Shown one piece after another: positions 19,418-55,735 of a stretch of DNA of 64,000 bases. The notes below the pieces were generated by a model. The model was given only the letters and a program-made list of their open reading frames with translations. It was not told the origin of the DNA and did no database searches. A program made the translations under genes and the position numbers. Source of the DNA: Escherichia coli (GTDB lineage: Bacteria; Pseudomonadota; Gammaproteobacteria; Enterobacterales; Enterobacteriaceae). The stretch lies in assembly GCF_016903815.1 (NCBI RefSeq), contig NZ_CP069973.1, one strand, 5' to 3'. How positions within the stretch are numbered: position 1 is the first letter of the stretch; each line of letters starts with the position of its first letter.

Positions 19418-19427
19418 AATAAACCTC

Positions 19428-20498
19428 TTAAGCCACGCGAGCCGTCAGCTGCCCGTTCAGATCCTGATGAATTTCACGCAGCAAGGCATCGGTCATTTCC
19501 CAACTAATGCAGGCATCGGTTACGGATACACCGTATTTCATTTCACTGCGCGGTTGCTCGGAAGACTGATTGCCCTCGTGGATATTACTTTCGATCATCA
19601 GACCAATAATTGAGCGATTGCCATCTTTGATTTGAGCAACCACGGATTCTGCCACCGCAGGCTGACGGCGATAATCTTTATTGGAATTACCGTGGCTGCA
19701 ATCTACCATCAGAGACGGGCGCAGTCCCGCCTGTTCCATCTCTTTTTCACATTGCGCAACATCCGCAGGGCTATAGTTCGGCGCTTTACCACCGCGCAGG
19801 ATCACATGCCCGTCCGGATTCCCCTGAGTTTGTAGCAACGCCACCTGCCCTGCCTGGTTAATGCCAACAAAACGGTGCGGCTGGGCGGCGGCGCGCATAG
19901 CGTTAATTGCTGTTGCCAGACTGCCGTCGGTGCCGTTTTTAAAACCAACCGGCATGGAAAGCCCGGAGGCCATTTCACGGTGAGTTTGCGATTCCGTTGT
20001 ACGAGCACCAATTGCTGACCAGCTAAACAGATCGCCCAGGTATTGCGGGCTATTTGGATCTAACGCTTCCGTCGCCAGTGGCAGTCCCATATTCACCAGC
20101 TCAAGCAGCAATTTACGCGCGATCTGCAGCCCGGCTTCTACATCAAAAGAGCCATCCATATGGGGATCGTTAATCAACCCTTTCCAACCGACAGTGGTAC
20201 GGGGTTTTTCAAAATAGACGCGCATTACCAGATAGAGGCTATCGCTGACCTCTGCGGCAAGGGCTTTAAATCGACGAGCATATTCCAGAGCAGTTTCCGG
20301 ATCATGAATGGAACAAGGACCACATACTACCAACAGACGAGGATCGCGCCCGGCGATAATATCTGAAATGGTTTTACGCGAGTCAGCAATCTGGGCTTCT
20401 TGTTGCAGGCTTAATGGAAAAGCGGCCTTCAGTTGTTCCGGAGTCATTAAAACCTGTTCGTCGGTAATATGTACGTTATTCAGCGCGTCTTTTTGCAT
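19428..20498 (-). CDS. aroF: Tyr-sensitive DAHP synthase
   Basis: 356-aa product starting [11 protein letters not shown]; track ORF is extended 23 codons upstream. Confidence 0.9.
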
Positions 20499-23533: not shown

Positions 23534-23546
23534 AGTTAAGACGCTC
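23534..23546. repeat. attL core (AGTTAAGACGCTC)
   Basis: Identical 13-mer to attR; reverse complement encodes E-R-L-N-stop, a displaced copy of the rplS 3' end. Confidence 0.7.
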
Positions 23547-23627: not shown

Positions 23628-24677
23628 TTATGCAACCTCTGCCGCCATATTGTCGCCAACATACAGCGATAACGGATTAAGGGTTACAGCTTGTTCAAGG
23701 TGGTCAGGAGCAAAGTGTGCATACTTCATTGTTTCTCGAATATTGGCATGCCCGAGAATTTTCTGCAGTACCAGTATATTCCCGCCGTTCATCATAAAAT
23801 GCGCACCAAAAGTATGACGCAAAACGTGCGTCTTCTGCCCTTCCGTCAATTCAATATTCGTTAGTTTGAGCATCTTCTTAAACTCCTGATAGCAGGGTTT
23901 AAACATTCTGCCTTGACGTACGGACAACTCGTCGTACAGCCATTTAGGAATAGGAACTGTGCGATTCTTCTTACCTTTGGTTTTGGTGAACGTCAGTTTA
24001 TATGGAGAAAGTTGAGGGCGGGTCAATCTCTCCGCTTCCCCCCATCGAGCGCCGGTTGCAAGGCACACCTTAACAATCATGGTGAGGTCTTCTTTGCCGT
24101 ATTGCTCGCAGGCTCGAAACAGCTCCGGGAGCTGAGACAAAGTTAGCCAGGACATTTCTTTCTCAGCCTCTTTGAATACTCGGATCCCATCAAGTGGATT
24201 GGGTAGGCTCCACTCCCCTAACCGGCGGAGCTCATTAAACACTGCTTCTAGGTATTGTTGTTCGCGATTGACGGTTATAGGTTTGGCGATCCATTTCGAG
24301 GGGTCTTTATGATAACCGTTGTCTATTTCACCACGTAATCGACGGTCACGATAATGAGCCCAGTCTTTCGCGGTAAGGCGAGATGCAATCGGGTCACCAA
24401 GCCCATTACATACGATTTGAAGCTTTGCTAACCTCGACTTACTGGCGACTAACGCTTGACCGTGCAAATTGTGCCAAAGCTGAATAATCTCGCTTAAGCG
24501 TCGGCGGTCTTCTTTCTTGCCAAGCCACGGCTTATCTTCACTCTCGCTTTTGGTAAATGCTTCGAATGCCTCGGCCTCACCTTTGGTATTGAATTGCCGA
24601 CGTATACGCCGCCCTTCTCGACCATTTGGATAGAGCTCGCATAACCATTTGCCATTTTTTTGCTTACTTACAGTCAT
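23628..24677 (-). CDS. int: tyrosine site-specific integrase
   Basis: 349-aa product with R…HxxR…Y catalytic signature (VLRHTFGAHF, MKYAH); adjacent to attL. Confidence 0.9.
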   Translation of the reverse strand: MTVSKQKNGKWLCELYPNGREGRRIRRQFNTKGEAEAFEAFTKSESEDKPWLGKKEDRRRLSEIIQLWHNLHGQALVASKSRLAKLQIVCNGLGDPIASRLTAKDWAHYRDRRLRGEIDNGYHKDPSKWIAKPITVNREQQYLEAVFNELRRLGEWSLPNPLDGIRVFKEAEKEMSWLTLSQLPELFRACEQYGKEDLTMIVKVCLATGARWGEAERLTRPQLSPYKLTFTKTKGKKNRTVPIPKWLYDELSVRQGRMFKPCYQEFKKMLKLTNIELTEGQKTHVLRHTFGAHFMMNGGNILVLQKILGHANIRETMKYAHFAPDHLEQAVTLNPLSLYVGDNMAAEVA

Positions 24678-25965: not shown

Positions 25966-26028
25966 GGCATTCATCGACCAAGATGCACACCACTGCACTA
26001 CATTTCAAACAACAGGAGATAATGCGAT

Positions 26029-26400
26029 ATGTCAGATGCAAAATCAATCTCGACGCACGACTCGCAAAACTCACAAAATCAAACTGTGCTGCTAAATCCA
26101 ACACAGTTTGATGCCATCGTTACCGCCATGCTGCCAGCTCTACAGACAATGATTCGCTCCGCTATGTCAGACACGATGACTGTGAAAGACTTCGCCGCTA
26201 CTCGCGGTGTTAGCGAGCGTCTGGTCTGGCAATGGCTCGATGAGGGAGTCCTTCTCAAAGCTCCGACCAAAGACTTTTCCAACAAAGAGGAAGCTGCTAA
26301 ACGAAGCCGAACCCTCGTAAACGTAAAAGCATGGCGCGATAAGCTGACTCAACAAGCGATTGATTGTCGCTACATCGACCAGCGCACCGCTCTTAACTGA
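26029..26400 (+). CDS. Apl/Cox-like excisionase-regulator (HTH)
   Basis: First gene of early operon, AGGAG SD; HTH-like segment VKDFAATRGVSERLVWQWL; role assigned by position. Confidence 0.5.
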   Translation: MSDAKSISTHDSQNSQNQTVLLNPTQFDAIVTAMLPALQTMIRSAMSDTMTVKDFAATRGVSERLVWQWLDEGVLLKAPTKDFSNKEEAAKRSRTLVNVKAWRDKLTQQAIDCRYIDQRTALN

Positions 26401-26432
26401 ATTTGATTATGCAAGTTAGAGGGAATTTAACC

Positions 26433-26942
26433 ATGTTTGATTTTCAGGTTTCCAAACATCCCCACTATGACGAAGCATGCCGCATTTTCGCACAGCGTCA
26501 CAACATGGCGAAGCTGGCCGAGCGTGCAGGTATGAACGTTCAAACGTTACGTAACAAGCTCAACCCGGAACAGCCTCACCAGTTCACGCCGTCTGAATTG
26601 TGGCTGCTGACTGACCTGACCGAAGACTCAACCCTCATTGATGGTTTTTTAGCGCAGATTCACTGCCTACCATGCGTGCCGGTTAATGAGTTGGCTAAAG
26701 ACAAATTGCAGTCTTATGTCATGCGCGCAATGCGTGAACTCGGCGAACTGGCGAGCGGCGCGGTATCTGATGAACGTCTGACCATTGCCCGTAAGCACAA
26801 CATGATTGAAAGCGTTAACTCCGGCATTCGCATGTTGTCATTGTCGGCTCTGGCGCTGCATGCACGTCTGCAGACTAATCCAGCTATGTCGAGCGTGGTC
26901 GATACCATGAGCGGTATTGGCGCATCGTTTGGTCTGATTTGA
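26433..26942 (+). CDS. cII: CII-like lysogeny establishment regulator (phage 186 type)
   Basis: 169-aa product starting MFDFQVSKHPHYDEACR, recognised as 186 CII-like. Confidence 0.8.
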   Translation: MFDFQVSKHPHYDEACRIFAQRHNMAKLAERAGMNVQTLRNKLNPEQPHQFTPSELWLLTDLTEDSTLIDGFLAQIHCLPCVPVNELAKDKLQSYVMRAMRELGELASGAVSDERLTIARKHNMIESVNSGIRMLSLSALALHARLQTNPAMSSVVDTMSGIGASFGLI

Positions 26943-26943
26943 G

Positions 26944-27150
26944 GTGCGTATGCTGAAAAGTGAACCGTCATTCGCATCTCTGCTCGTTAAGCAAAGCCCC
27001 GGCATGCACTACGGCCACGGCTGGATCGCAGGTAAGGACGGCAAGCGCTGGCACCCGAGCCACTCGCAGGCTGATTTACTGGCTGGCCTCTCTACTCAAA
27101 AGCGGGGGGGATCATGGCTATCGAAGCTGTTTCCGCGACTGTTCCGCTAA
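26944..27150 (+). CDS. hypothetical early protein
   Basis: ORF in early operon, start codon overlaps cII stop; no recognised motif. Confidence 0.4.
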   Translation: MRMLKSEPSFASLLVKQSPGMHYGHGWIAGKDGKRWHPSHSQADLLAGLSTQKRGGSWLSKLFPRLFR

Positions 27151-27452
27151 AAGCGGGTGAACGTCTGGCCGGTCTCAATCATGTTGCCGAATTGCGCGCG
27201 AGATATTGGGGCGATAGCTGGAAAGAGGTTGAACGTTTTGTCGATGATATGCGCGATAAACGTGACCCACAATTTGAAGAAAATAATCGGGCGCTGGCCG
27301 CTATTTTCTTTCTGGCAAAAATACCGGCGGCTCGTCATGAACTCGAATTAAGTGAGCTGACTACTGACGAGAAAAAGGCGCTTATTACAGCGATGAATCA
27401 TTTTCGTGCAGTAGTGAGCTTATTTCCCAAACGGCTAACCATGCCGAATTAA
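27114..27452 (+). CDS. hypothetical early protein
   Basis: 112-aa ORF in early operon. Confidence 0.5.
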   Translation: MAIEAVSATVPLKAGERLAGLNHVAELRARYWGDSWKEVERFVDDMRDKRDPQFEENNRALAAIFFLAKIPAARHELELSELTTDEKKALITAMNHFRAVVSLFPKRLTMPN

Positions 27453-27519
27453 TCCAAACAGAAATTTAATGGCGTAAACCCGCCGGGCATCTTATTGCCC
27501 GAAATCAGGAGAGTTAATT

Positions 27520-27747
27520 ATGCGTAATACCGAAATCCGTAGTTTTAACACTGATAGCGATGCGCTGGCCGTATTGCTGACCGATGCAAAAAAAGAAGAG
27601 CGTAAAGACCGCGCGCTCGCTGTTTCCATCCGCCTTGAGGCGCTGGCTATCCATATTACCAGAGAGGGAATGAGCGGCACCGAAGCTGCCGAACTGCTGC
27701 GCCGTGAAGCAACCCGCTTTGAGAATGAATCACAGGAGCTGCACTAA
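27520..27747 (+). CDS. hypothetical early protein
   Basis: 75-aa ORF with SD, immediately upstream of the TraR-like gene. Confidence 0.5.
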   Translation: MRNTEIRSFNTDSDALAVLLTDAKKEERKDRALAVSIRLEALAIHITREGMSGTEAAELLRREATRFENESQELH

Positions 27748-27968
27748 TGGCCGACGCAATGGATTTAGCACAACTGCGCGAGCAGGAAGACCGCGAACGC
27801 CACATCAGCAACGCACGCACCCGTATCGCTGCACCTTCCCGTTTTCTTTGCGAGGAATGTGACGCACCAATCCCGGAAGCTCGCCGCATTGCGATTCCGG
27901 GCGTGGCTTTTTGCGTAACCTGCCAGCAAATCGTAGAGCTAAAAAACAAACACTATCGGGGGGTATAA
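27747..27968 (+). CDS. TraR/DksA-family C4 zinc-finger protein
   Basis: CEECDAPIP…N17…CVTCQ motif. Confidence 0.7.
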   Translation: MADAMDLAQLREQEDRERHISNARTRIAAPSRFLCEECDAPIPEARRIAIPGVAFCVTCQQIVELKNKHYRGV

Positions 27969-27969
27969 A

Positions 27970-30192
27970 TTGGCTGTTCAATTCGCTTATCCGTGGAACG
28001 TCCCACGGTCGGCAATCTCCAGCCCATACCTTACTTATGAGCAACAGCATCGCCGCGACCGTATGTTCGCGGCTTTGCTGCATGCAAAAAAGGTGCTTTC
28101 TCTCCAGCCCGACTGCGTGCGGTTAGATGTTTATCGCACTGCTGCGGTGCTGGAGCAAAATCAGGGTAGTCAACGAGCCAATGCATTTTTAATCAGCTTC
28201 TGCAAAAAGGCATTGCCGCGTCTTGAACTGGTCGCAAAAAAATACGAATGCGCTGGTATCAACAGCAAGGTATCAACCGCTGTTTTTGGAAGTCATTTTG
28301 ATACTCAGCAAATGCAATATCTGTCGTCACGCATGGTTAATATGGTCGCCCGATATAACCGTCTCCCGGACATGTCGCGCGCTGATGTTGACCTGTTGGC
28401 CGCTGATATTGCTAATTTCATTCGTGGTGAACTTGCCAACATTAATGACCACGGATTCGGCGAGCTTAAAACGCTGTACACCTGGTATATTCGTGCTGGC
28501 TTTATTTCCCTCCAATTCAACGTTATCCCACCACATTGGGAGCGGGTTGAAAAAAAATATGTCGGTGCGGATGAAATCGCACCGGCTATCGCCAAAATGT
28601 TTAACGATGGGTGGTGGCGCGGTCGTTTGCGCCGTGTAGCAGCTACGTGGCGCGAACACCTGCAAATTGCAGTCGGCAACGTCAGTAAGAAAAAAAACAC
28701 TTACGCGAGTAAAAACTGCGTGACTGACTGGCGTGAACAAAAGCGCCGCACTCGTGAATTTCTCAAAGGTCTGGATCTCGAAGACGAAGACGGCAACCGT
28801 ATCAGCCTAATTGAAAAATATGATGGCTCAGTTGCTAACCCTGCGATTCGCCGCTGTGAGCTCATGACCCGCATTCGTGGGTTTGAAAACATCTGTAATG
28901 AGCTCGGTTATGTCGGTGAGTTTTACACTCTAACCGCGCCGTCAAAATATCACGCCACGACTAAAGCCGGTTACCGTAACAGCAAATGGAGCGGTGCCAG
29001 CCCGGCTGACACGCAAAACTATCTAACCGGTATCTGGGCGCGTATCCGTGCCAAACTACATCGGGAAGATGTCCGTATTTTCGGTATTCGTGTCGCCGAG
29101 CCCCATCACGACGGCACTCCACACTGGCACATGCTGATGTTCATGCTGCCGGAAGATGTTGAATATGTTCGCTCCATCGTCCGTAAATACGCATGGAAAG
29201 AAGACCGCCACGAACTGAAAAGCGATAAATCCAAAAAAGCACGTTTCCACGCGGAGTCCATTGACCCGGAGAAAGGCAGCGCAACCGGCTATGTTGCTAA
29301 ATACATTTCAAAAAATATCGACGGTTATGCTCTCGATGGTGAAACCGATGATGAAAGCGGTGAGCTGCTGAAAGAGACAGCCCCCGCCGTTTCAGCATGG
29401 GCTGCGCGCTGGCACATCCGTCAGTTTCAGTTTATTGGTGGTGCGCCGGTGACGGTTTACCGTGAGTTGCGTCGCCTCGCTGATACCGAAACCGCGCACG
29501 GTCTGAGCGTTGAGTTTGCCGCCGTCCATGATGCCGCCGACGCTGGTGACTGGGCTGGTTATGTTAATGCTCAGGGTGGGCCGTTTGTCCGTCGCGATGA
29601 TTTACAGGTGCGCACACTGTATGAACCGCGTACCGAGCTTAATCAGTACGGTGAGGAAACGGTATGTATTAAGGGGGTCTACGATTCCTCCATAGGTGCA
29701 GGAAGCCCGATTTTAACCCGGCTCACTCAGTGGAAGATTGTTCCGAAGCGTGCTGTTGATTTGGCCGTTGACCTTCAGGACGGCAAAGCCGTCCCTCGGA
29801 GTTCTGTCAATAACTGTACGGGAAGCGAAAGCGATCCACCGATACTGGATTTAACAAAACCACTGAGTCGGCGTGAAAGACGAGAATTGACCAACCGACT
29901 CAGGAAGCAAAAGCCAGCAGCACGGCGAAAATTCATCCACGGAACGGATGAGCAAAACGCAGCTATAGCTAAAACTATCGATGAGATACATCTGACAACC
30001 GGCATTAATATCAGCCGGGGCGAAGCCCTGCACCTGATGGCCGGTGGTAAAAGTTGTTTTGATGGTAAATGGCTACGCGGAACGGCCAAAGGAGAAATAT
30101 TTTCCGCAGCACCATCGCATGAAGCTAAAGCTCGGAAAATCCTTAATCGTGTTGCGGCGATGGCTGAAGCATCAAAACCAATACATGAGTAA
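27970..30192 (+). CDS. replication initiation endonuclease (P2 gpA-like rolling-circle Rep)
   Basis: 740-aa product with HxH metal motif (HWHMLMF) and active-site Tyr context (YVAKYISK). Confidence 0.9.
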   Translation: MAVQFAYPWNVPRSAISSPYLTYEQQHRRDRMFAALLHAKKVLSLQPDCVRLDVYRTAAVLEQNQGSQRANAFLISFCKKALPRLELVAKKYECAGINSKVSTAVFGSHFDTQQMQYLSSRMVNMVARYNRLPDMSRADVDLLAADIANFIRGELANINDHGFGELKTLYTWYIRAGFISLQFNVIPPHWERVEKKYVGADEIAPAIAKMFNDGWWRGRLRRVAATWREHLQIAVGNVSKKKNTYASKNCVTDWREQKRRTREFLKGLDLEDEDGNRISLIEKYDGSVANPAIRRCELMTRIRGFENICNELGYVGEFYTLTAPSKYHATTKAGYRNSKWSGASPADTQNYLTGIWARIRAKLHREDVRIFGIRVAEPHHDGTPHWHMLMFMLPEDVEYVRSIVRKYAWKEDRHELKSDKSKKARFHAESIDPEKGSATGYVAKYISKNIDGYALDGETDDESGELLKETAPAVSAWAARWHIRQFQFIGGAPVTVYRELRRLADTETAHGLSVEFAAVHDAADAGDWAGYVNAQGGPFVRRDDLQVRTLYEPRTELNQYGEETVCIKGVYDSSIGAGSPILTRLTQWKIVPKRAVDLAVDLQDGKAVPRSSVNNCTGSESDPPILDLTKPLSRRERRELTNRLRKQKPAARRKFIHGTDEQNAAIAKTIDEIHLTTGINISRGEALHLMAGGKSCFDGKWLRGTAKGEIFSAAPSHEAKARKILNRVAAMAEASKPIHE

Positions 30193-30266
30193 TTCATATC
30201 CATATCATGCACATACAGCAATCGCTCTATTCGTTTTTTTTCTTCCCATCTTTTGCCAATACGTGC

Positions 30267-30286
30267 TACTGTATAAATATACAGTA
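30267..30286 (+). promoter_or_regulatory. LexA operator (SOS box) upstream of tum/dinI-like pair
   Basis: TACTGTATAAATATACAGTA, near-perfect CTGT-N8-ACAG palindrome, followed by GGGAGGG SD and ATG at 30306. Confidence 0.75.
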
Positions 30287-30305
30287 ACCCTATGGGAGGG
30301 ACTTC

Positions 30306-30488
30306 ATGGTTGGCGAACATTTCAGCCGAACGCAGCAAAAGTGGGCTTGTGTGCAATTTATTGCCGAGGTATCTCTGATTGCAAACTGCAAGCCATCAGA
30401 CTTAAAGCTCGCGCTCACTCTCATTGCAGACCTAGCAAACAGCGAAAATAACGAAACCGAAGATGATAATTTTTATAAGGCTGATTAG
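30306..30488 (+). CDS. small protein, candidate Tum-like antirepressor module
   Basis: 60-aa ORF directly downstream of the LexA box; function inferred from position only. Confidence 0.45.
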   Translation: MVGEHFSRTQQKWACVQFIAEVSLIANCKPSDLKLALTLIADLANSENNETEDDNFYKAD

Positions 30489-30491
30489 ATT

Positions 30492-30722
30492 ATGAGAATC
30501 AATATCACGTTGGATAAAGAGCAAAAATTAGGGCAACAGATCATTGATGCTTTTCAAAATGAAATAACACATCGAGTACAATGCGTTTTTCCTGCAACAA
30601 AAGTTAACGTTAAGAAAGGGTCAATGACTGGTGTAGAGGCTATCGGATTCGATAAAGAGGCGGACAGAGAAACATTAGGCAGCATATTACAAGAGATTTG
30701 GGAAGACGATAGCTGGCGTTAA
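30492..30722 (+). CDS. DinI-family protein
   Basis: 76-aa product with DinI-like C-terminus (…LGSILQEIWEDDSWR). Confidence 0.75.
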   Translation: MRINITLDKEQKLGQQIIDAFQNEITHRVQCVFPATKVNVKKGSMTGVEAIGFDKEADRETLGSILQEIWEDDSWR

Positions 30723-30761
30723 ACATAATAACCGTGCTGGCGCAAAAACTAGCTTTTTGCG

Positions 30762-30795
30762 TCGGCGGGGTTGAGTAACGAGCCCACGAGGCTTA
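30762..30795 (+). repeat. direct repeat copy 1 (GGCGGGGTTGAGTAACGAGCCCACGAGGC)
   Basis: About 80 percent identical to copy 2 at 31165..31198; follows a hairpin. Confidence 0.5.
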
Positions 30796-30921
30796 AGTCC
30801 TGCCTTTCAAAATTTCTCAATGTGCTATTGATGACACGCCCATGATTAATGAGGCATGACCTGAGATGGTTTTATAGTGGCGTTTTGACGGCACTGATTA
30901 AAATTCATTGAGGGTGATAAT

Positions 30922-31131
30922 ATGCATCGACTACCAGGTGAAATACCGCAACACAAAACTAAAAGCATCAAACTGATGGCCATCGTTCATCGTTTGCAGC
31001 AGATAATGGTCAATGAGAATTTGACACCCGCAGAGCTGGTCGGGTGTGCCGAAATAGTCAGGGATAATTACGGCAAGCTGGATAGCATCAGCAGGTCGAA
31101 ACAATACGCACCACCACCACGTCGACGATAG
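30922..31131 (+). CDS. hypothetical small protein (69 aa)
   Basis: Good SD (GAGGGTGA) 6 nt upstream of ATG; flanked by the two direct repeats. Confidence 0.4.
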   Translation: MHRLPGEIPQHKTKSIKLMAIVHRLQQIMVNENLTPAELVGCAEIVRDNYGKLDSISRSKQYAPPPRRR

Positions 31132-31164
31132 CAAACGCCGCCGGTTCTGAAACTCGCTTTCAGT

Positions 31165-31198
31165 ACTGGCGGGGGTTGAACAACGAGCACCGCGAGGC
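31165..31198 (+). repeat. direct repeat copy 2 (GGCGGGGGTTGAACAACGAGCACCGCGAGGC)
   Basis: See copy 1; lies in the convergent gap between the 69-aa ORF and the 313-aa gene. Confidence 0.5.
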
Positions 31199-31205
31199 GT
31201 TAGCA

Positions 31206-32147
31206 TTAATTTATTTTTAATGAATGGTAATCTCGTGAGTTGACCGAAGATTTGAGATAACTGCAATCATTAACCGACAGTATTGCCGCTAATAGGCGAC
31301 ATACCAGTGCCTGCATTTGCAGCAATATATCGTTACCATATTGACTGTTGTTAACACTTGAGAAACCAAGCGGTTGACCAAAAAAAATAGCCTCATGAAA
31401 ATTATCATTGCGGATGCCAGAAATGTTTTTTTTACCTGACACCCATGTGGGGATTGATAACCCATAAATTTTGCACATCCACTTTAATCGCTTGTAATGA
31501 TTTGGCGGTTTTTTATCAGGAGCCTTGTCATGCTCAGCCCACGACAAAGCAAAGCACCCATCAAGTGCCATGTAAAGGTACTGGAATTTTTCAAAAGAAA
31601 GGTATTGTGGGTTTTGAGATAAGAATAGTGCATGCACCACTGCCGCAATTCTTTTGGGGGAGTGCGCATCCTTATGTTTGCCATTTATATAATTAAGAGC
31701 CAGTTCTATGACTTCTTTTTCAGAGCATCCAACGAGAATAAAGTCGGTTAACTTAGTGGGCTTGATAGTGGTTGCATCTAAAAAACCAGCGTCAGTGGTT
31801 GTCAATCTTATTCCCTTGAAAAAAGAAAGGCACCACACAATAAAGTTGAGAGTTTCTAACGAGGATGTATTTTTTAATTTTAGTGTGTGCGTTTTGGGCA
31901 TACTGAATACTCGGTGACTATAAGGCATTGTGGATATGCCACCATTAAGGTTATATACATCTTGGTTTCCAGGGTATATCCAACCTTTCACAACGTTTTT
32001 ATCATTATTAACACGCTCCACTTTCTCATTGAGACCAGGTAAAGTAAGCAAAGAAAATTGTTCAGTCTCAATGTTAACTTCTACTGGATAGTATCCAAAC
32101 TCCGACATAATCTCATTGGGTTGCTGTTCGTCAACTTCACCTTGCAT
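31206..32147 (-). CDS. accessory protein (313 aa) with Rx4H motif; candidate HEPN-like abortive-infection protein
   Basis: A+T-rich ORF in the region between replication gene A and cos; motif GIRNDNFHEA (R-x4-H); no other recognised domain. Confidence 0.65.
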   Translation of the reverse strand: MQGEVDEQQPNEIMSEFGYYPVEVNIETEQFSLLTLPGLNEKVERVNNDKNVVKGWIYPGNQDVYNLNGGISTMPYSHRVFSMPKTHTLKLKNTSSLETLNFIVWCLSFFKGIRLTTTDAGFLDATTIKPTKLTDFILVGCSEKEVIELALNYINGKHKDAHSPKRIAAVVHALFLSQNPQYLSFEKFQYLYMALDGCFALSWAEHDKAPDKKPPNHYKRLKWMCKIYGLSIPTWVSGKKNISGIRNDNFHEAIFFGQPLGFSSVNNSQYGNDILLQMQALVCRLLAAILSVNDCSYLKSSVNSRDYHSLKIN

Positions 32148-32384
32148 ATCTTTCTCCGTTCAAAAATAGGCTCGATAATTATCGAGAGGCTATCATGTTT
32201 GGAAAGAATCAATGTCCGTAATTTTTGTAAATTTAAGGTGATTTATCAATAAATAAGCTGTGCATGCAACAGGTGCATGGTTCTGCATGCGCCGGGGTTA
32301 CCCGTTTTGTACGTGCGCCGCAAGAGCTGGCGGGGATCCAGAGTGGTCATGCAACTGCATTAAAACCGCCCCATAAAGCGGGCA

Positions 32385-32403
32385 GGCGTGGCGGGGAAAG
32401 CAT
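32385..32403. other. candidate cos site (cohesive end)
   Basis: GGCGTGGCGGGGAAAGCAT closely resembles my recollection of the P2 cohesive end (GGCGAGGCGGGGAAAGCAC); embedded in a GC-rich non-coding stretch near Q. Confidence 0.55.
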
Positions 32404-32622
32404 TGCGCGCCAGCAGTGATGCGTAATAATAAAAATTATCCTCTGAGCGCGTCGTGATGGCGCTGTCGTGGTCGCTGCTGGTTCGTTGGTGGTCGGGTGT
32501 GTTCGTGCGCGTGAGACGCATCTGATGCGTGATGGTGGTGTGCATGGAAAAGCCACCAGGAGCAGCGGCTTTACAGGAGTGGCAGGATTCAAACTGCTAA
32601 TTATGTTTCTACTATGATTAAA

Positions 32623-33627
32623 CTAATTTACATGTATGTAGAGTTCACCGTCGCCAGACCAATCGGGACACTCTAAAACAAGCCCAAACTGCTTGAATAT
32701 TTCATCAATGATTATTGTTATCTCCCGAAAATCACCAAAACCTGTAATGTGCTGGTCATTAAACTTCCCATAAAGATTCTGAAAAGCAATGCCTAATTCT
32801 GATAATTGATATCTTATCTTTGAGTTGGATAGTGTAAGGGATAGCTTTGGATCGTATTCTTTAATATTGATGTTTAGAGAATGGACATAACCCATCGCAT
32901 AAGCATAAGAGTTGATGATTAGCCTGATACGTTTTTTTACTTCGAGATACATGTCATTCAGAGAAATATTACCGTACTTATAACCCCAGATGAGTTTTTC
33001 AATCTCGTCAGATACTTCATTTACAACAGTGTCAAGATTCTCTAAAAATAAATCGATAGTTTCTTGAGGGGCAGACCCCGAAGACATGTAATTAGCGAGA
33101 TATTCAGACCATGCACGCGTGGCTGAGATAAGAAGCGCGCTACCATACTCGTTGACTGTAAAGTTTTGGGCTAAGCATGTTAGTAAGTTTTTTTCATGTA
33201 CGTGCACTAATTCATGGTGAATGCGATGGATGACTGCGAGGTATCCTTCTTCTTTCAGTTTTAAGAAGCTACCATCATTGAAAAGCTCAACAAAAAAATC
33301 AATCGATAGCACAAGGGTATATTCTTCACATAGCCCATCATTGCCAATTTTTGTTACTAACTGCCCGACGGCTGCGCCCTGTTTGCTATTGGTAAATGAA
33401 CTAGGGGATTTGTGTTGGTAAGAGGATGTTACCTTTTGAAGAGCTTCACTGAAGTTATAGGAAACAATCACGCATTTTAATTTGGAGATATCAAGATTGA
33501 GATTTTTTGTTAAAGCTCGGATAGCTTCTAGTGTGAAATTACCGATATTATTTGCTTCTTGCTCAGTAGCGAAACCTTCGAGGGTTATTTTAAAATCAGT
33601 TTCCAAAATATTAATCTCCGCGCCCAT
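32623..33627 (-). CDS. accessory protein (334 aa) with HExxH motif; candidate zincin-like metallopeptidase
   Basis: A+T-rich ORF between cos and portal gene Q; motif HRIHHELVHVHE with Glu about 23 residues downstream. Confidence 0.65.
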   Translation of the reverse strand: MGAEINILETDFKITLEGFATEQEANNIGNFTLEAIRALTKNLNLDISKLKCVIVSYNFSEALQKVTSSYQHKSPSSFTNSKQGAAVGQLVTKIGNDGLCEEYTLVLSIDFFVELFNDGSFLKLKEEGYLAVIHRIHHELVHVHEKNLLTCLAQNFTVNEYGSALLISATRAWSEYLANYMSSGSAPQETIDLFLENLDTVVNEVSDEIEKLIWGYKYGNISLNDMYLEVKKRIRLIINSYAYAMGYVHSLNINIKEYDPKLSLTLSNSKIRYQLSELGIAFQNLYGKFNDQHITGFGDFREITIIIDEIFKQFGLVLECPDWSGDGELYIHVN

Positions 33628-33704
33628 TGTTTTGATATTCGATGCACTATAGCTTTCGCAGATTGCATCTTCAATAATGAGCGCAGAGATTGTGGCGGCC
33701 TAAG

Positions 33705-34751
33705 TTATTCTGGGTTGTCGAGGGTGTACTCTTTGAATCTGATGACCTCCATGCCGAGCCAGTCATTTACCTCCCTGAACCGGTCCTGTAGCGGCGACAG
33801 CTCGTTGCGCACAAATACCTTTGCCACCTTCTCAACATCACCGAGTGAACCGATATTCTCGGGCTTGCCGCCCATGAGCTGGAACGGTACGCGGTGCGCG
33901 TCCATCAGATCGGCGGCACTGGCCTTCTTGATGTTGAAAAAGTCATCCTTTGTGGCGACCTCGCTCAGTGGCACGATTTTGATGCCGTCCGGTTTTCCGC
34001 CGGGAGCGTAGAAAAACAGGTTCTTAAAGTTGCCGAGCCCTTTTGAGTTGCGCATCGCCTCGCGCAGCGATTCGACGTCGGTCGCGCTCTGCGCCGGGTC
34101 AGTCACATACATGATGTAACCCGCGTGCGCGCCGTTCTGATAATACTTGCGGCGGAACAGCGTCGCGGATTCATTCAGCCAGGCGGAATTTAGCGCGCTG
34201 AGATATTCGGGCAGGCCGTAAATCTCCTGATTAATGTCGGGCTCCAGCAGGTGAAACACGGTATCAGGCGCGAACTCGTGCGGCTGGGTGAAGTTTTCCA
34301 CAAACCAGAAAATCGAATCGTCGACTCCGCGTCGGGTGTATTTGGCTGGCGAGGCCAGCAGTTTGATTAACTGGCCGGTGACGCTGTGGCGCTGCTCAAG
34401 AAAGGCGTTACCGAACACCAGATAATCGAGCGCAAAGCGGCTGAAATCCTGACGGGATAACAACGGGTGCGGAATGTAGGTGCTCGCGAGCACGTTACGC
34501 TTAACATAAATTGGCGAGCTGTGATGCACGGCAGAGCGCAGGCTCTTTGCCAGCCCTGAGAAGCTGACCGGCGGCTCGTACCATTTGCCGTTACTGATGC
34601 ACTCGACGTAATCCAGAATGTCGCGCTTATCGAGCACCGGCACCGGCTCGCCGAAGGTGAACGCTGTCGTTTTTGGCGGTGCGCTGGCGGTCAGTTGTTG
34701 TGGTTTGCTGGCCTTTTGTGCGTTGGCTTTACGGGATTTTTGTTTACCCAT
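33705..34751 (-). CDS. portal protein (P2 gpQ-like)
   Basis: 348-aa product, size and position match P2 Q; adjacent to terminase. Confidence 0.9.
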   Translation of the reverse strand: MGKQKSRKANAQKASKPQQLTASAPPKTTAFTFGEPVPVLDKRDILDYVECISNGKWYEPPVSFSGLAKSLRSAVHHSSPIYVKRNVLASTYIPHPLLSRQDFSRFALDYLVFGNAFLEQRHSVTGQLIKLLASPAKYTRRGVDDSIFWFVENFTQPHEFAPDTVFHLLEPDINQEIYGLPEYLSALNSAWLNESATLFRRKYYQNGAHAGYIMYVTDPAQSATDVESLREAMRNSKGLGNFKNLFFYAPGGKPDGIKIVPLSEVATKDDFFNIKKASAADLMDAHRVPFQLMGGKPENIGSLGDVEKVAKVFVRNELSPLQDRFREVNDWLGMEVIRFKEYTLDNPE

Positions 34752-34752
34752 T

Positions 34753-36522
34753 TTAGTTGAACTCCAGAATAGATTTAGGCTGCATGCCGCTACCGGCAGA
34801 AAGCGGTTCGTTTAACAGGGCGTGCATGGTCGCCCATGCGATATCGGCGTGGCTGGCTTCCTCGGTGCGGCTGGCCTCATAGGTGGCGCTGCGCCCGCTG
34901 CTGGTCATGGTTTTGCGGATGGACATAAACGACTGCGTGACGTCGGTTGCTCCGGCGTCGTACTCCAGACAGCCACGGCGAATGGTGTCTTTCGCCTTGA
35001 GTACCATTGCGGTTTTCATTTCAGGTGTGTAACGGATGCCGCGTGCCGCCGGGTAAAATGAGCGCACCAGCTGGAACACGCCGAGACCGAGGCCGGTTGC
35101 GTCAATGCCGATGTATTCGACGTTGTATTTCTCGGTCAGCTTGCGGATGCCCTCTGCCTGTGCTGCAAAATCCATGCCCTTCCACTGGTGGCGCTCCAGC
35201 ATGCGGAACTTGCCACCAGAGACCACCGGCGGCGCGAGCACGACGCACCCGGCACTGTCGCCGGTGTGTGACGGGTCGTAGCCAATCCAGACAGGACGAG
35301 AGCCGAACGGATGGTCGGCGAACGGGGCAAAGTCCTCCCATTCCTCCATTACATCGACCATGCAGCGCTGCAGCTCCTCGAACGGGAATACCGACGCTTT
35401 ATCGTCGACAAACTCGCACATAAACAGGTTCTTAAAGTCCTCATCACTGTTTTCGCGTTTGAGCTGGTCGAGGTCGAACAGGGTGCAGCCACCCGCAAGG
35501 GCGTCCTCAATGGTGACAATCTGCCGCCACTGGCCATCGTCGCAGAGCTGGCCACCGGCGAGCGCGCTGTGACTGATGTCGATTTCGATGCGGTCGGCAA
35601 TCCGGCTGCGCCCCTTGTTGAACAGCTCGCCAGACCAGAAGGGGTAAGCGCCGTGCGCCAGCGTGGAAGGTGTCGAAAAATAGGTCGAGCGCAGGTGCTT
35701 TTGCGAGGCCATGCCCGAGGCGACTTTGCGCAGTTTCTGAAAATTCGGGATCCAGAATATTTCATCGACATACAGATCGCCGTTATGGCTCTGCGCGGTG
35801 TTGGAATTGGTACCGAGAAAAATCAGTTTTGCGCCGTTGTTACCGATGACAATCGGGTCGCCAGTCAGGTCAACGTCGACCAGTCGCGCAAACTGGATGA
35901 TGTATTCGCGGAACACGTAAGCCTGCGTTTTACTGGCTGATAAAAATATCTGGTTATGGCCGGTTTTGAGTGCGCGCAGCAGTGCCTCGCGGGAGAAATA
36001 GAATGTCGCGCCAATCTGGCGGGATTTGAGAATGTCACGAATACGGTGCTCCAGTCCTGCGCGGTACCACTGCAACTGGTACTCGAAAGACTGGTCGAAA
36101 AATAATTCCTCTAGTTTATCGATAGCCTCGTCGCTGAAAAAATTCTTTTTCGGCTTTTTGCGCTCCCCTTTGTTGCGGTTGGCGACGTTGGGGTTAAGGT
36201 CGGCTTCGTTGCCGGTCTGGCTGTAGCGGTTGACTCGCGCCAACCGTTCAATCTGCCGTCCGAGCAGGTCAATCTCTTTGAAATCACCCCCTGTCTTTTG
36301 CGGCTTGGCGATGAGCTGAATCAGCCTAGCCTCAAGGCTGCTTTCAACGCGGGAAATCGGCGCGATGCCGTCCCAGCCGTCACGCTGCTTCCAGCTCTGC
36401 ACGGTCGGGCGCTTGACCTGCAGCATTTCGGCAATCTGTGGCACGGAAAAACCCTGCCAGTAAAGCAGCGATGCCTGCCGTCGCGGGTCATGCAACAAGG
36501 TTGTATCGGTGGAAATGGTCAT
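34753..36522 (-). CDS. terminase large (ATPase) subunit (P2 gpP-like)
   Basis: 589-aa product; divergent from capsid operon. Confidence 0.9.
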   Translation of the reverse strand: MTISTDTTLLHDPRRQASLLYWQGFSVPQIAEMLQVKRPTVQSWKQRDGWDGIAPISRVESSLEARLIQLIAKPQKTGGDFKEIDLLGRQIERLARVNRYSQTGNEADLNPNVANRNKGERKKPKKNFFSDEAIDKLEELFFDQSFEYQLQWYRAGLEHRIRDILKSRQIGATFYFSREALLRALKTGHNQIFLSASKTQAYVFREYIIQFARLVDVDLTGDPIVIGNNGAKLIFLGTNSNTAQSHNGDLYVDEIFWIPNFQKLRKVASGMASQKHLRSTYFSTPSTLAHGAYPFWSGELFNKGRSRIADRIEIDISHSALAGGQLCDDGQWRQIVTIEDALAGGCTLFDLDQLKRENSDEDFKNLFMCEFVDDKASVFPFEELQRCMVDVMEEWEDFAPFADHPFGSRPVWIGYDPSHTGDSAGCVVLAPPVVSGGKFRMLERHQWKGMDFAAQAEGIRKLTEKYNVEYIGIDATGLGLGVFQLVRSFYPAARGIRYTPEMKTAMVLKAKDTIRRGCLEYDAGATDVTQSFMSIRKTMTSSGRSATYEASRTEEASHADIAWATMHALLNEPLSAGSGMQPKSILEFN

Positions 36523-55384: not shown

Positions 55385-55735
<351 letters not shown>

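Follow-up and report, generated by a model that had tools for sequence, protein, structure and literature searches.

The locus examined here raises the question of why two similar direct repeats should bracket one small gene, orf69, in a prophage of Escherichia coli. The window, by which we mean the whole stretch of DNA that was analysed, covers 64,000 nucleotides (nt) of contig NZ_CP069973.1. The original prediction described the repeats as about 30 bp long and regarded them as either the footprint of a cassette-style insertion or a repeated structured or protein-binding element. We find that they are the 3' ends of two copies of a conserved, apparently unnamed element of the peduoviruses, here called E, which is more general than had been supposed.

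Both repeats are where they were reported to be (GGCGGGGTTGAGTAACGAGCCCACGAGGC at 30764-30792 and GGCGGGGGTTGAACAACGAGCACCGCGAGGC at 31168-31198). A 20-nt degenerate pattern derived from the pair matches the 64 kb at these two sites only, and none of 100 shuffles gave at least two matches. Each repeat overlaps an inverted repeat with arms of 19-21 nt and a 5-nt loop, the arms lying at 30730-30748 and 30754-30772 in the first copy (copy A) and at 31132-31152 and 31158-31178 in the second (copy B). The repeats had been said to follow a hairpin. The hairpins exist, but the repeats do not follow them, as the first 7-9 bases of each repeat belong to the 3' arm of the stem. Alignment of the flanks shows that the true repeated unit is about 75-80 nt rather than 30 (30723-30800 and 31127-31206, with 79% column identity). 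The two stems differ by compensatory changes, with GCGCAAAAA/UUUUUGCGU in one copy and GUUCUGAAA/UUUCAGUAC in the other. The view that this is a repeated structured element and not a chance repeat was sound, as was its placement at the border between conserved phage genes and variable cargo.

The consensus of E begins with a stop-like triplet, followed after 1-3 nt by AAC, a variable 5' arm, the loop CUYGY, a variable 3' arm and a tail. The tail consists of GGUUGAACAACGAGC, 2-4 variable nt and GCGAGGCGUUAG; it is about 30 nt long, single-stranded, and contains a Shine-Dalgarno-like GAGG. The hairpin has 18-20 bp and its sequence drifts by way of compensatory changes. Folded as plus-strand RNA, both copies in the window reach about -32 kcal/mol with z near -3 (-32.6 kcal/mol and z=-3.2 for copy A), whereas the minus strands fold more weakly, at -20 and -26 kcal/mol with z of +0.45 and -1.5.

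Analysis of covariation, which had been proposed as a check on the repeat, gave a strong signal in the hairpin. In an alignment of 96 copies, 12 of the 18 stem pairs contain double changes (280 cells), and 90.7% of cells are paired; sliding the partners by 1-3 columns lowers this to 34-50%. None of 500 column shuffles matched the observed percentage paired, number of double-change cells or covariation score. The AAC/GUU at the foot of the stem is paired in 93-96 of the 96 copies, and the position next to it is mismatched in 70. Apart from one frequent mismatch (columns 11-51) the stem runs on almost without a break, and conserved bulges are lacking. There are 162 G·U pairs against 32 A·C pairs, and in 83 of 96 copies it is the plus strand that folds more stably, which together argue for selection on the folded sense strand. 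The simplest reading would be that this fold acts as RNA, in the mRNA, rather than as folded plus-strand DNA. With covariation across about 100 distinct sequences, E is a candidate new RNA family; the Rfam 15 covariance models, applied to 26000-36000 of the window at E-values up to 10, gave no match at E.

Several further possible features of E were considered. A pseudoknot between loop and tail (CUCG with CGAG) was rejected, there being no covariation and 15-24% of copies being incompatible at two of the four positions. A coding role for the tail was rejected as well, since its spacer of 2-4 nt leaves no constant reading frame. No complementary partner of the tail was found elsewhere in the prophage, and no Chi site occurs in or near E within the prophage right arm.

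A covariance model (CM) built from the 96 copies has exactly two full matches in the window, at 82 and 66 bits; the scores under CM R1 are 82 bits (E=2e-23) for copy B and 66.4 bits (E=1e-18) for copy A. A weak match at 19418-19451, in the host tyrA-aroF junction, was judged to be due to chance. Copy B is 94.5% identical to 30342-30413 of phage 186. By blastn, E was found in 96 phage records from Escherichia, Salmonella, Klebsiella, Yersinia and Erwinia, and a degenerate pattern retrieved 120 IMG/VR loci with about 100 distinct copies. On other phage loci the CM gives one or two matches each, always on the strand of the upstream gene. Among 5,426 complete E. coli genomes, 484 (about 9%) carry E, at one or two places each, all of them in P2-like prophages and never annotated as RNA. 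The few plasmid matches are P2-like prophages within IncC plasmids. One of these, in NZ_CP021835.1 (1-12074), looks complete and has a reverse-transcriptase cargo gene right behind E; prophages of this type sit in conjugative IncC plasmids of about 200 kb in Klebsiella, E. coli, Enterobacter, Citrobacter and Providencia.

In a scan of genomes from 100,044 species, matches to a 17-base pattern are mostly due to chance at that database size, and only those confirmed by the CM were kept. These come from Citrobacter, Mixta, Pseudocitrobacter, Kluyvera, Escherichia and one Enterobacteriaceae metagenome-assembled genome (MAG), all Enterobacterales. Matches of 12-33 bits in an Acetobacteraceae MAG (locus L143, 5645-8310) are false positives in a repeated LINEQREALE-type motif of a 1,857-amino acid (aa) open reading frame (ORF). 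Since the pattern used in the first retrieval had forced the tail, we assembled an independent set of 80 loci seeded on phage DinI proteins only. E is present in 77 of these, in 74 of them directly behind the dinI stop codon. It also occurs in Cartapus, whose gpA is only 37% identical to that of the window, and a divergent copy (46 bits) in an Enterobacter prophage lies behind a tiny ORF after gpA and abuts convergent cargo. Peduoviruses pro483 and SEN5 lack E, which makes it an accessory element rather than an essential replication or packaging site. E was thus seen only in Enterobacterales peduoviruses, always at this locus and in one or two copies per genome. The repeat recurs at the same cargo boundary in other P2-like prophages, one or two copies to a phage. 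The alternative that had been allowed for, a motif spread throughout phage genomes and unrelated to variable content, does not fit the two copies that the CM finds in 64 kb, at one locus.

The prophage in the window is a 186/PSP3-like peduovirus, and its segment 30400-31300 is 100% identical to phage vB_EcoM-613R3. The features to which we refer below are as follows.

23628-24677, the integrase gene int.
27970-30192, gpA.
30267-30286, plus strand, LexA box TACTGTATAAATATACAGTA in a p95-like SOS promoter region 5' of the tumA-like gene.
30306-30488, plus strand, tumA-like ORF of 60 aa (phrog_1993, E=1e-31).
30492-30722, plus strand, DinI-family, tumB-like gene of 76 aa, directly 5' of copy A (Pfam DinI, E=1.7e-17; phrog_189).
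30723-30797, plus strand, copy A of E (internal), with TAATAA, AAC, the hairpin at 30730-30772 and a degenerate tail GGTTGAGTAACGAGCCCACGAGGCTTAAG at 30769-30797.
30922-31131, plus strand, orf69 of 69 aa, PSP3 gp37 family (phrog_11386, E=1.5e-47), with its own Shine-Dalgarno sequence, GAGGGTGATAAT-ATG.
31127-31203, plus strand, copy B of E (terminal), with the hairpin at 31132-31178 and a canonical tail GGTTGAACAACGAGCACCGCGAGGCGTTAG at 31174-31203.
31206-32147, minus strand, cargo gene ORF313, homologue of P2-EC67 ORF313, convergent with the operon (phrog_5937, with a wide family of homologues).
32386-32404, plus strand, 19-nt cos cohesive-end sequence GGCGTGGCGGGGAAAGCAT of the 186 type; right limit of the variable segment.
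32623-33627, minus strand, ORF334, a second cargo ORF of 334 aa between cos and the portal gene (phrog_11743).
33705-34751, portal gene Q.

Both copies of E lie on the sense strand of the operon and adjoin the cos-proximal variable region, known in P2-like phages as the "TO region" or defence hotspot (Rousset et al. 2022, PMC9122126). The LexA box is a perfect match to CTGT-N8-ACAG at 30269-30284, and the homologous region of phage 186 carries the p95/LexA annotation. Its position 5' of the tumA-like gene would place both copies in an SOS-induced transcript, so that tumA-dinI-E-orf69-E should be SOS-induced as a whole. The tumA-like region has 97.7% DNA identity with tumA/tumB of PSP3, and orf69, flanked by the two copies, is a conserved phage gene. 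The stop codon of orf69, TAG, is 2 nt ahead of the AAAC of copy B, and the stop codon of ORF313 is 2 nt past the end of the same copy. Right ends homologous to that of the window are present in 186 and PSP3. As candidate attL/attR core we noted a 13-nt exact direct repeat, AGTTAAGACGCTC, at 23534-23546 and 55387-55399, with partly similar flanks. With these as its ends the prophage would measure about 31.9 kb, and its insertion point would be downstream of yfiB.

The 5' neighbour of E is always an ORF on the same strand, ending 1-11 nt before the stem, and it can belong to any of five unrelated families: DinI/TumB, orf69, orf97 of 186, a family of 63-67 aa, and TumA. Where the true stop codon is further off, as in copy A and behind 186 orf97, a vestigial TAA, TGA or TAG persists 2 nt before AAC. 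On the 3' side, homology between phages ends 0-2 nt past GUUAG, and identical copies of E precede unrelated sequence. What follows is of three kinds: an ORF of the phrog_2100 family, cargo in either orientation, or, in 186, a canonical terminator and then cos. The phrog_2100 ORF (86-89 aa) has its ATG 2-3 nt past GUUAG and 8 nt past CGAGGC, with the GAGG as its Shine-Dalgarno sequence. An ORF starts 2-3 nt past GUUAG in 17 of 60 distinct terminal copies of the DinI-seeded set (about 28%) and in about 30 of the loci fetched by the pattern. The phrog_2100 proteins have the N-terminus M[GA]G[SK]D..YQVVYRG (for example L004, 1635-1901, and L248, 5321-5581), and theirs is the last gene before cos. 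In 186, E is itself unannotated, between orf97 and t95b and within the p95 transcript; the canonical terminator t95b lies 45 nt downstream of it, and a true partial terminator, t95a, occupies the interval between tum and orf97.

Loci with two copies are built from the same units in varied arrangements. PSP3 and 22 of the 80 DinI-seeded loci have dinI+E stacked with orf69+E, at a spacing of 403-405 or 431 nt. A P2-type phage (L014) has the order orf69-E-orf97-E-cargo, and Wphi and P2-type phages have A-orf91-orf92(orf69-like)-E-cargo. In L014 (1705-2750) the homologue of 186 orf97 stands between two copies 967 nt apart; the 186 record annotates orf97 with "expression from plasmid blocks 186 infection". 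In Wphi (L125, 3127-3507) the annotated orf92 runs into a frameshift-split orf69-like frame; this is a pseudogene unless the record contains a sequencing error. The orf69 and orf97 units begin differently at the 5' end from one context to another, and the variable cargo genes never have an E of their own. In locus L006 a copy of the second type is joined straight to dinI, with cargo as in the two-copy locus L011, so that L006 looks like the product of recombination between the first and second E of an L011-like phage. The same cargo was also found joined to different E contexts. In P2-, Wphi-, 186- and PSP3-type phages the hotspot is bounded on its left by the terminal E. The idea of a cassette-style footprint fits the stacked units of gene plus element; it does not hold as a one-off insertion, as the family is old and present at 77 of 80 phage dinI genes.

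A comparison of the copies by position, the most telling of our results, separates the two parts of E. We call terminal those that border variable DNA (55 distinct copies) and internal those followed by orf69, such as copy A (16); internal and terminal copies from the same genomes serve as a built-in control. Mean hairpin energy is alike in both classes, at -25 to -28 kcal/mol. The string CGAGGCGUUAG is kept in 53 of 55 terminal copies and in 5 of 16 internal ones, CGAGGCGTTAG being the string scored in the tail, and the full canonical tail is found in 38 of 55 terminal and none of 16 internal copies. Internal tails show either GAGG changed to GAGA or ACGAGC changed to ACUCGC, the latter able to pair with GCGAG. 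This second variant is common to internal copies of L002 (1595-1620), L011, L053 and L029, where a 5-bp hairpin CUCGC-nnn-GCGAG would hide the GAGG. Hairpin and tail thus appear separable, the hairpin being needed behind every gene and the tail maintained only at the junction with the next DNA.

We tentatively favor the interpretation, to which we would give somewhat less than an even chance, that E is an operon-end or intercistronic RNA module which also provides a constant stretch of homology at which genes are gained and lost. Behind each small accessory gene (dinI/tumB, orf69, orf97 and others) the hairpin would punctuate the polycistronic mRNA, as a barrier to 3' exonucleases or a processing site of the RNase III/E type, and so set the stability or yield of the upstream gene. 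As the stem begins no more than 3 nt from the stop codon, terminating ribosomes would have to open its lower half. A stem of 18-20 bp behind a stop codon is compatible with an RNase III site or a retroregulator of the lambda sib type. The tail would be a portable ribosome-binding leader for whichever gene comes next; constant in most of the phages sampled, it could also give the cos-proximal variable region a fixed patch of homology on its left. Recombination between two direct copies of E could add or remove the gene between them. In the window, dinI+E and orf69+E are stacked, copy A having become internal and lost the canonical tail while keeping its hairpin. The family, its anatomy, strand, covariation and position, and the contrast between terminal and internal copies were observed directly in this analysis; we infer each functional step from them.

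Several observations weigh against this interpretation. The RNA role is drawn from strand asymmetry and position only, and G·T pairs are tolerated in folded single-stranded DNA too. The tail is conserved in 43 of 60 distinct terminal copies that have no ORF using the GAGG, among them copy B, which abuts a convergent gene, and that of 186, which is followed by a terminator, so that a plain ribosome-binding role cannot explain its conservation. For the contrast between retained terminal tails and decayed internal ones, the Fisher p of 4e-7 is optimistic, as the sequences are related by descent and the test overstates their independence. Since E is missing in pro483 and SEN5, any role must be an accessory one.

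The terminal tail has a leading alternative explanation as an anchor for exchange, which would be compatible with the RNA module. In its full form, which we consider rather unlikely, E is a DNA-level recombination or capture site, at which the tail, with or without an extruded or single-stranded hairpin, joins new cos-proximal cargo and small gene modules; the joining would be by a site-specific enzyme or at a preferred anchor of homologous recombination, and E would mainly make the hotspot exchangeable, as in a cassette system. Such a site would account for homology stopping 0-2 nt past GTTAG whatever comes next, for the varied combinations and orders of gene-plus-E units, for conserved arms around a short variable spacer (nnn), and for the resemblance of L006 versus L011 to a deletion between two copies. 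A tail kept at the variable border and lost internally likewise fits selection on the junction, not a general RNA function. It would not account for the compensatory changes and the 5:1 excess of G·U over A·C, as folding of the sense strand is superfluous for a duplex DNA site. The cargo genes also lack E, no second site is seen at the right (cos) boundary, and the 5' junctions of the orf69 and orf97 modules vary with context. The tail lacks dyad symmetry, there is no associated recombinase, the candidate att core is unlike the tail, and selection for evolvability alone is a weak force to keep 30 nt constant. The title of Nilsson et al. 2004 speaks of site-specific recombination at this locus, and that work may already note the junction. 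More ambitious, and distinctly improbable in our estimate, is the proposal that E is the core of an unrecognised peduovirus gene-capture system that inserts and excises small genes and defence cargo as units. If true, this system would have a logic like that of integrons or promoter-early stem-loop (PeSL) repeats, with its own site and its own enzyme or dedicated route of recombination, and would explain why the site is intact only in the copy bordering variable DNA. Very unlikely, in turn, is a transcription attenuator or terminator, in which hairpin and tail halt or pause RNA polymerase at the end of the SOS/early operon and insulate the convergent cargo and cos, internal tails having mutated so that transcription reaches orf69. 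E is where a terminator is expected, being the sole hairpin between the convergent orf69 and ORF313; the true partial terminator t95a fills the tum-orf97 position in 186, and decayed internal tails are what a need for read-through would lead to. Behind the stem, however, comes GGUUGAACAAC, with no U-tract, and a terminator scan called the full stem in neither copy, its sole call in E being a 5-bp sub-stem of copy A (30736-30753). In 186 the separate canonical t95b lies 45 nt beyond E, and about 28% of terminal copies have a gene 2-3 nt past the tail, so that transcription must pass through E. We give very little credence to the last candidate, a single-stranded DNA element of rolling-circle replication whose plus-strand hairpin and tail would signal lagging-strand priming or helicase loading for gpA/gpB. 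Its distance of 1-2 kb from the gpA origin and its strand-specific folding would suit such an element, but pro483 and SEN5 have gpA and no E, the distances to ori and cos vary widely, E is duplicated along with accessory genes, and neither a CTG primase start nor any other known ssi signature is present. The bottom strand of E is only weakly similar to the gpA nick site (186 ori, GCGCCCTCTCGGAGTTCTGTCAA). The tail GCGAGGCG also resembles the P2-type cos end GGCGAGGCGGGG, which is probably a coincidence, as the 186-type cos differs (GGCGTGGCG) while the tail stays constant.

Among known systems, the attC sites of integrons share several features with E. Both have an imperfect hairpin directly behind an ORF, with a stop codon at the 5' edge and stacked units of ORF plus site; E has AAC...GTT at its stem base, its GTTGAAC fits GTTRRRY, and variable content starts past a GTT-containing motif. 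Unlike those of attC, the 5' heptamers of E (AGCAAAC, AAGAAAC, TGATAAC and similar) neither fit RYYYAAC nor pair with GAAC. The sense (top) strand of E folds better, whereas attC recombination uses the bottom strand, and E has no conserved extrahelical bases and has a 24-nt conserved tail past the stem. There are at most two copies per phage, the cargo has no site of its own, and there is no intI or attI; no tyrosine recombinase other than the prophage int (23628-24677) is present. We tested the three defining features of attC, found none of them, and rejected E as an integron attC site. The notion of an attC-like cassette fails for this reason as well as for the lack of E copies on cargo genes and the context-dependent 5' ends of the would-be cassettes.

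Other hairpin elements were compared in the same way. An intrinsic terminator requires a GC-rich hairpin with a U-tract; as the stem of E lacks the latter, this identity was rejected. Repetitive extragenic palindromic (REP) sequences and bacterial interspersed mosaic elements (BIME) occur in hundreds of dispersed chromosomal copies, with a palindrome of 35-40 nt, a GTAG foot and a REP-associated tyrosine transposase (RAYT). E occurs at one or two places per E. coli genome, with only two matches in the 64 kb, of which 23 kb is host DNA, and is not such an element. Like REP/BIME, 3' stabiliser hairpins and lambda sib (the RNase III site behind int), E is a stable sense-strand hairpin right after a stop codon, and hairpins of the 3' stabiliser type are expected to govern decay or translation of the gene upstream. 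It differs from REP and sib in being phage-specific and low in copy number, and in that its stem length is fixed and its loop (CUYG) and 30-nt tail are conserved. The ops site of RfaH, read on the non-template strand, is GGCGGTAGnnTG, in which G5 and T6 are indispensable; the tail has GGCGTTAG, a match at 7 of 8 positions with T in place of G5, and conservation does not extend to the downstream TG, so that this identity was rejected too. The nearest analogy in logic may be the PeSL repeats, which Arbiol, Comeau and Krisch reportedly described in 2010 as "mobile regulatory cassettes" of T4-type phages. These also combine a short intergenic stem-loop with an expression signal; they flank small ORFs in the plastic portion of the phage genome, which direct copies may recombine in or out. 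E differs in having a tail like a ribosome-binding site and no sigma-70-like promoter, in being limited to at most two copies at one locus, and in not flanking the cargo on both sides.

E thus shares its locus with the TO region, the cos-proximal hotspot for defence genes in P2-like phages (Nilsson et al. 2004; Rousset et al. 2022, PMC9122126). In the literature on this hotspot that we examined, which includes PMC9122126, the variable genes are described and no structured boundary element is. ORF313 belongs to a large single-gene family (phrog_5937) found in Enterobacterales, Aeromonas, Pseudomonas and Acinetobacter, one UniRef entry of which is named "Apea-like HEPN domain-containing protein"; we regard it as a candidate unclassified defence gene. 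Pfam, PADLOC and PDB searches gave no informative match for orf69, ORF313, ORF334 or phrog_2100. The position of ORF334 is a second variable slot, beyond cos, where L004 has a 422-aa ORF.

In enteric bacteria, P2-like prophages rank with the principal carriers of anti-phage defence genes, and the content of their cos-proximal hotspot is replaced very fast. E is a precisely bounded and structurally conserved left edge of this hotspot that is apparently undescribed. It may offer a handle on the post-transcriptional tuning of the accessory genes of the SOS operon (tum, dinI and others) and on where and how cargo is exchanged, and it could serve as a practical landmark for delimiting the hotspot automatically.

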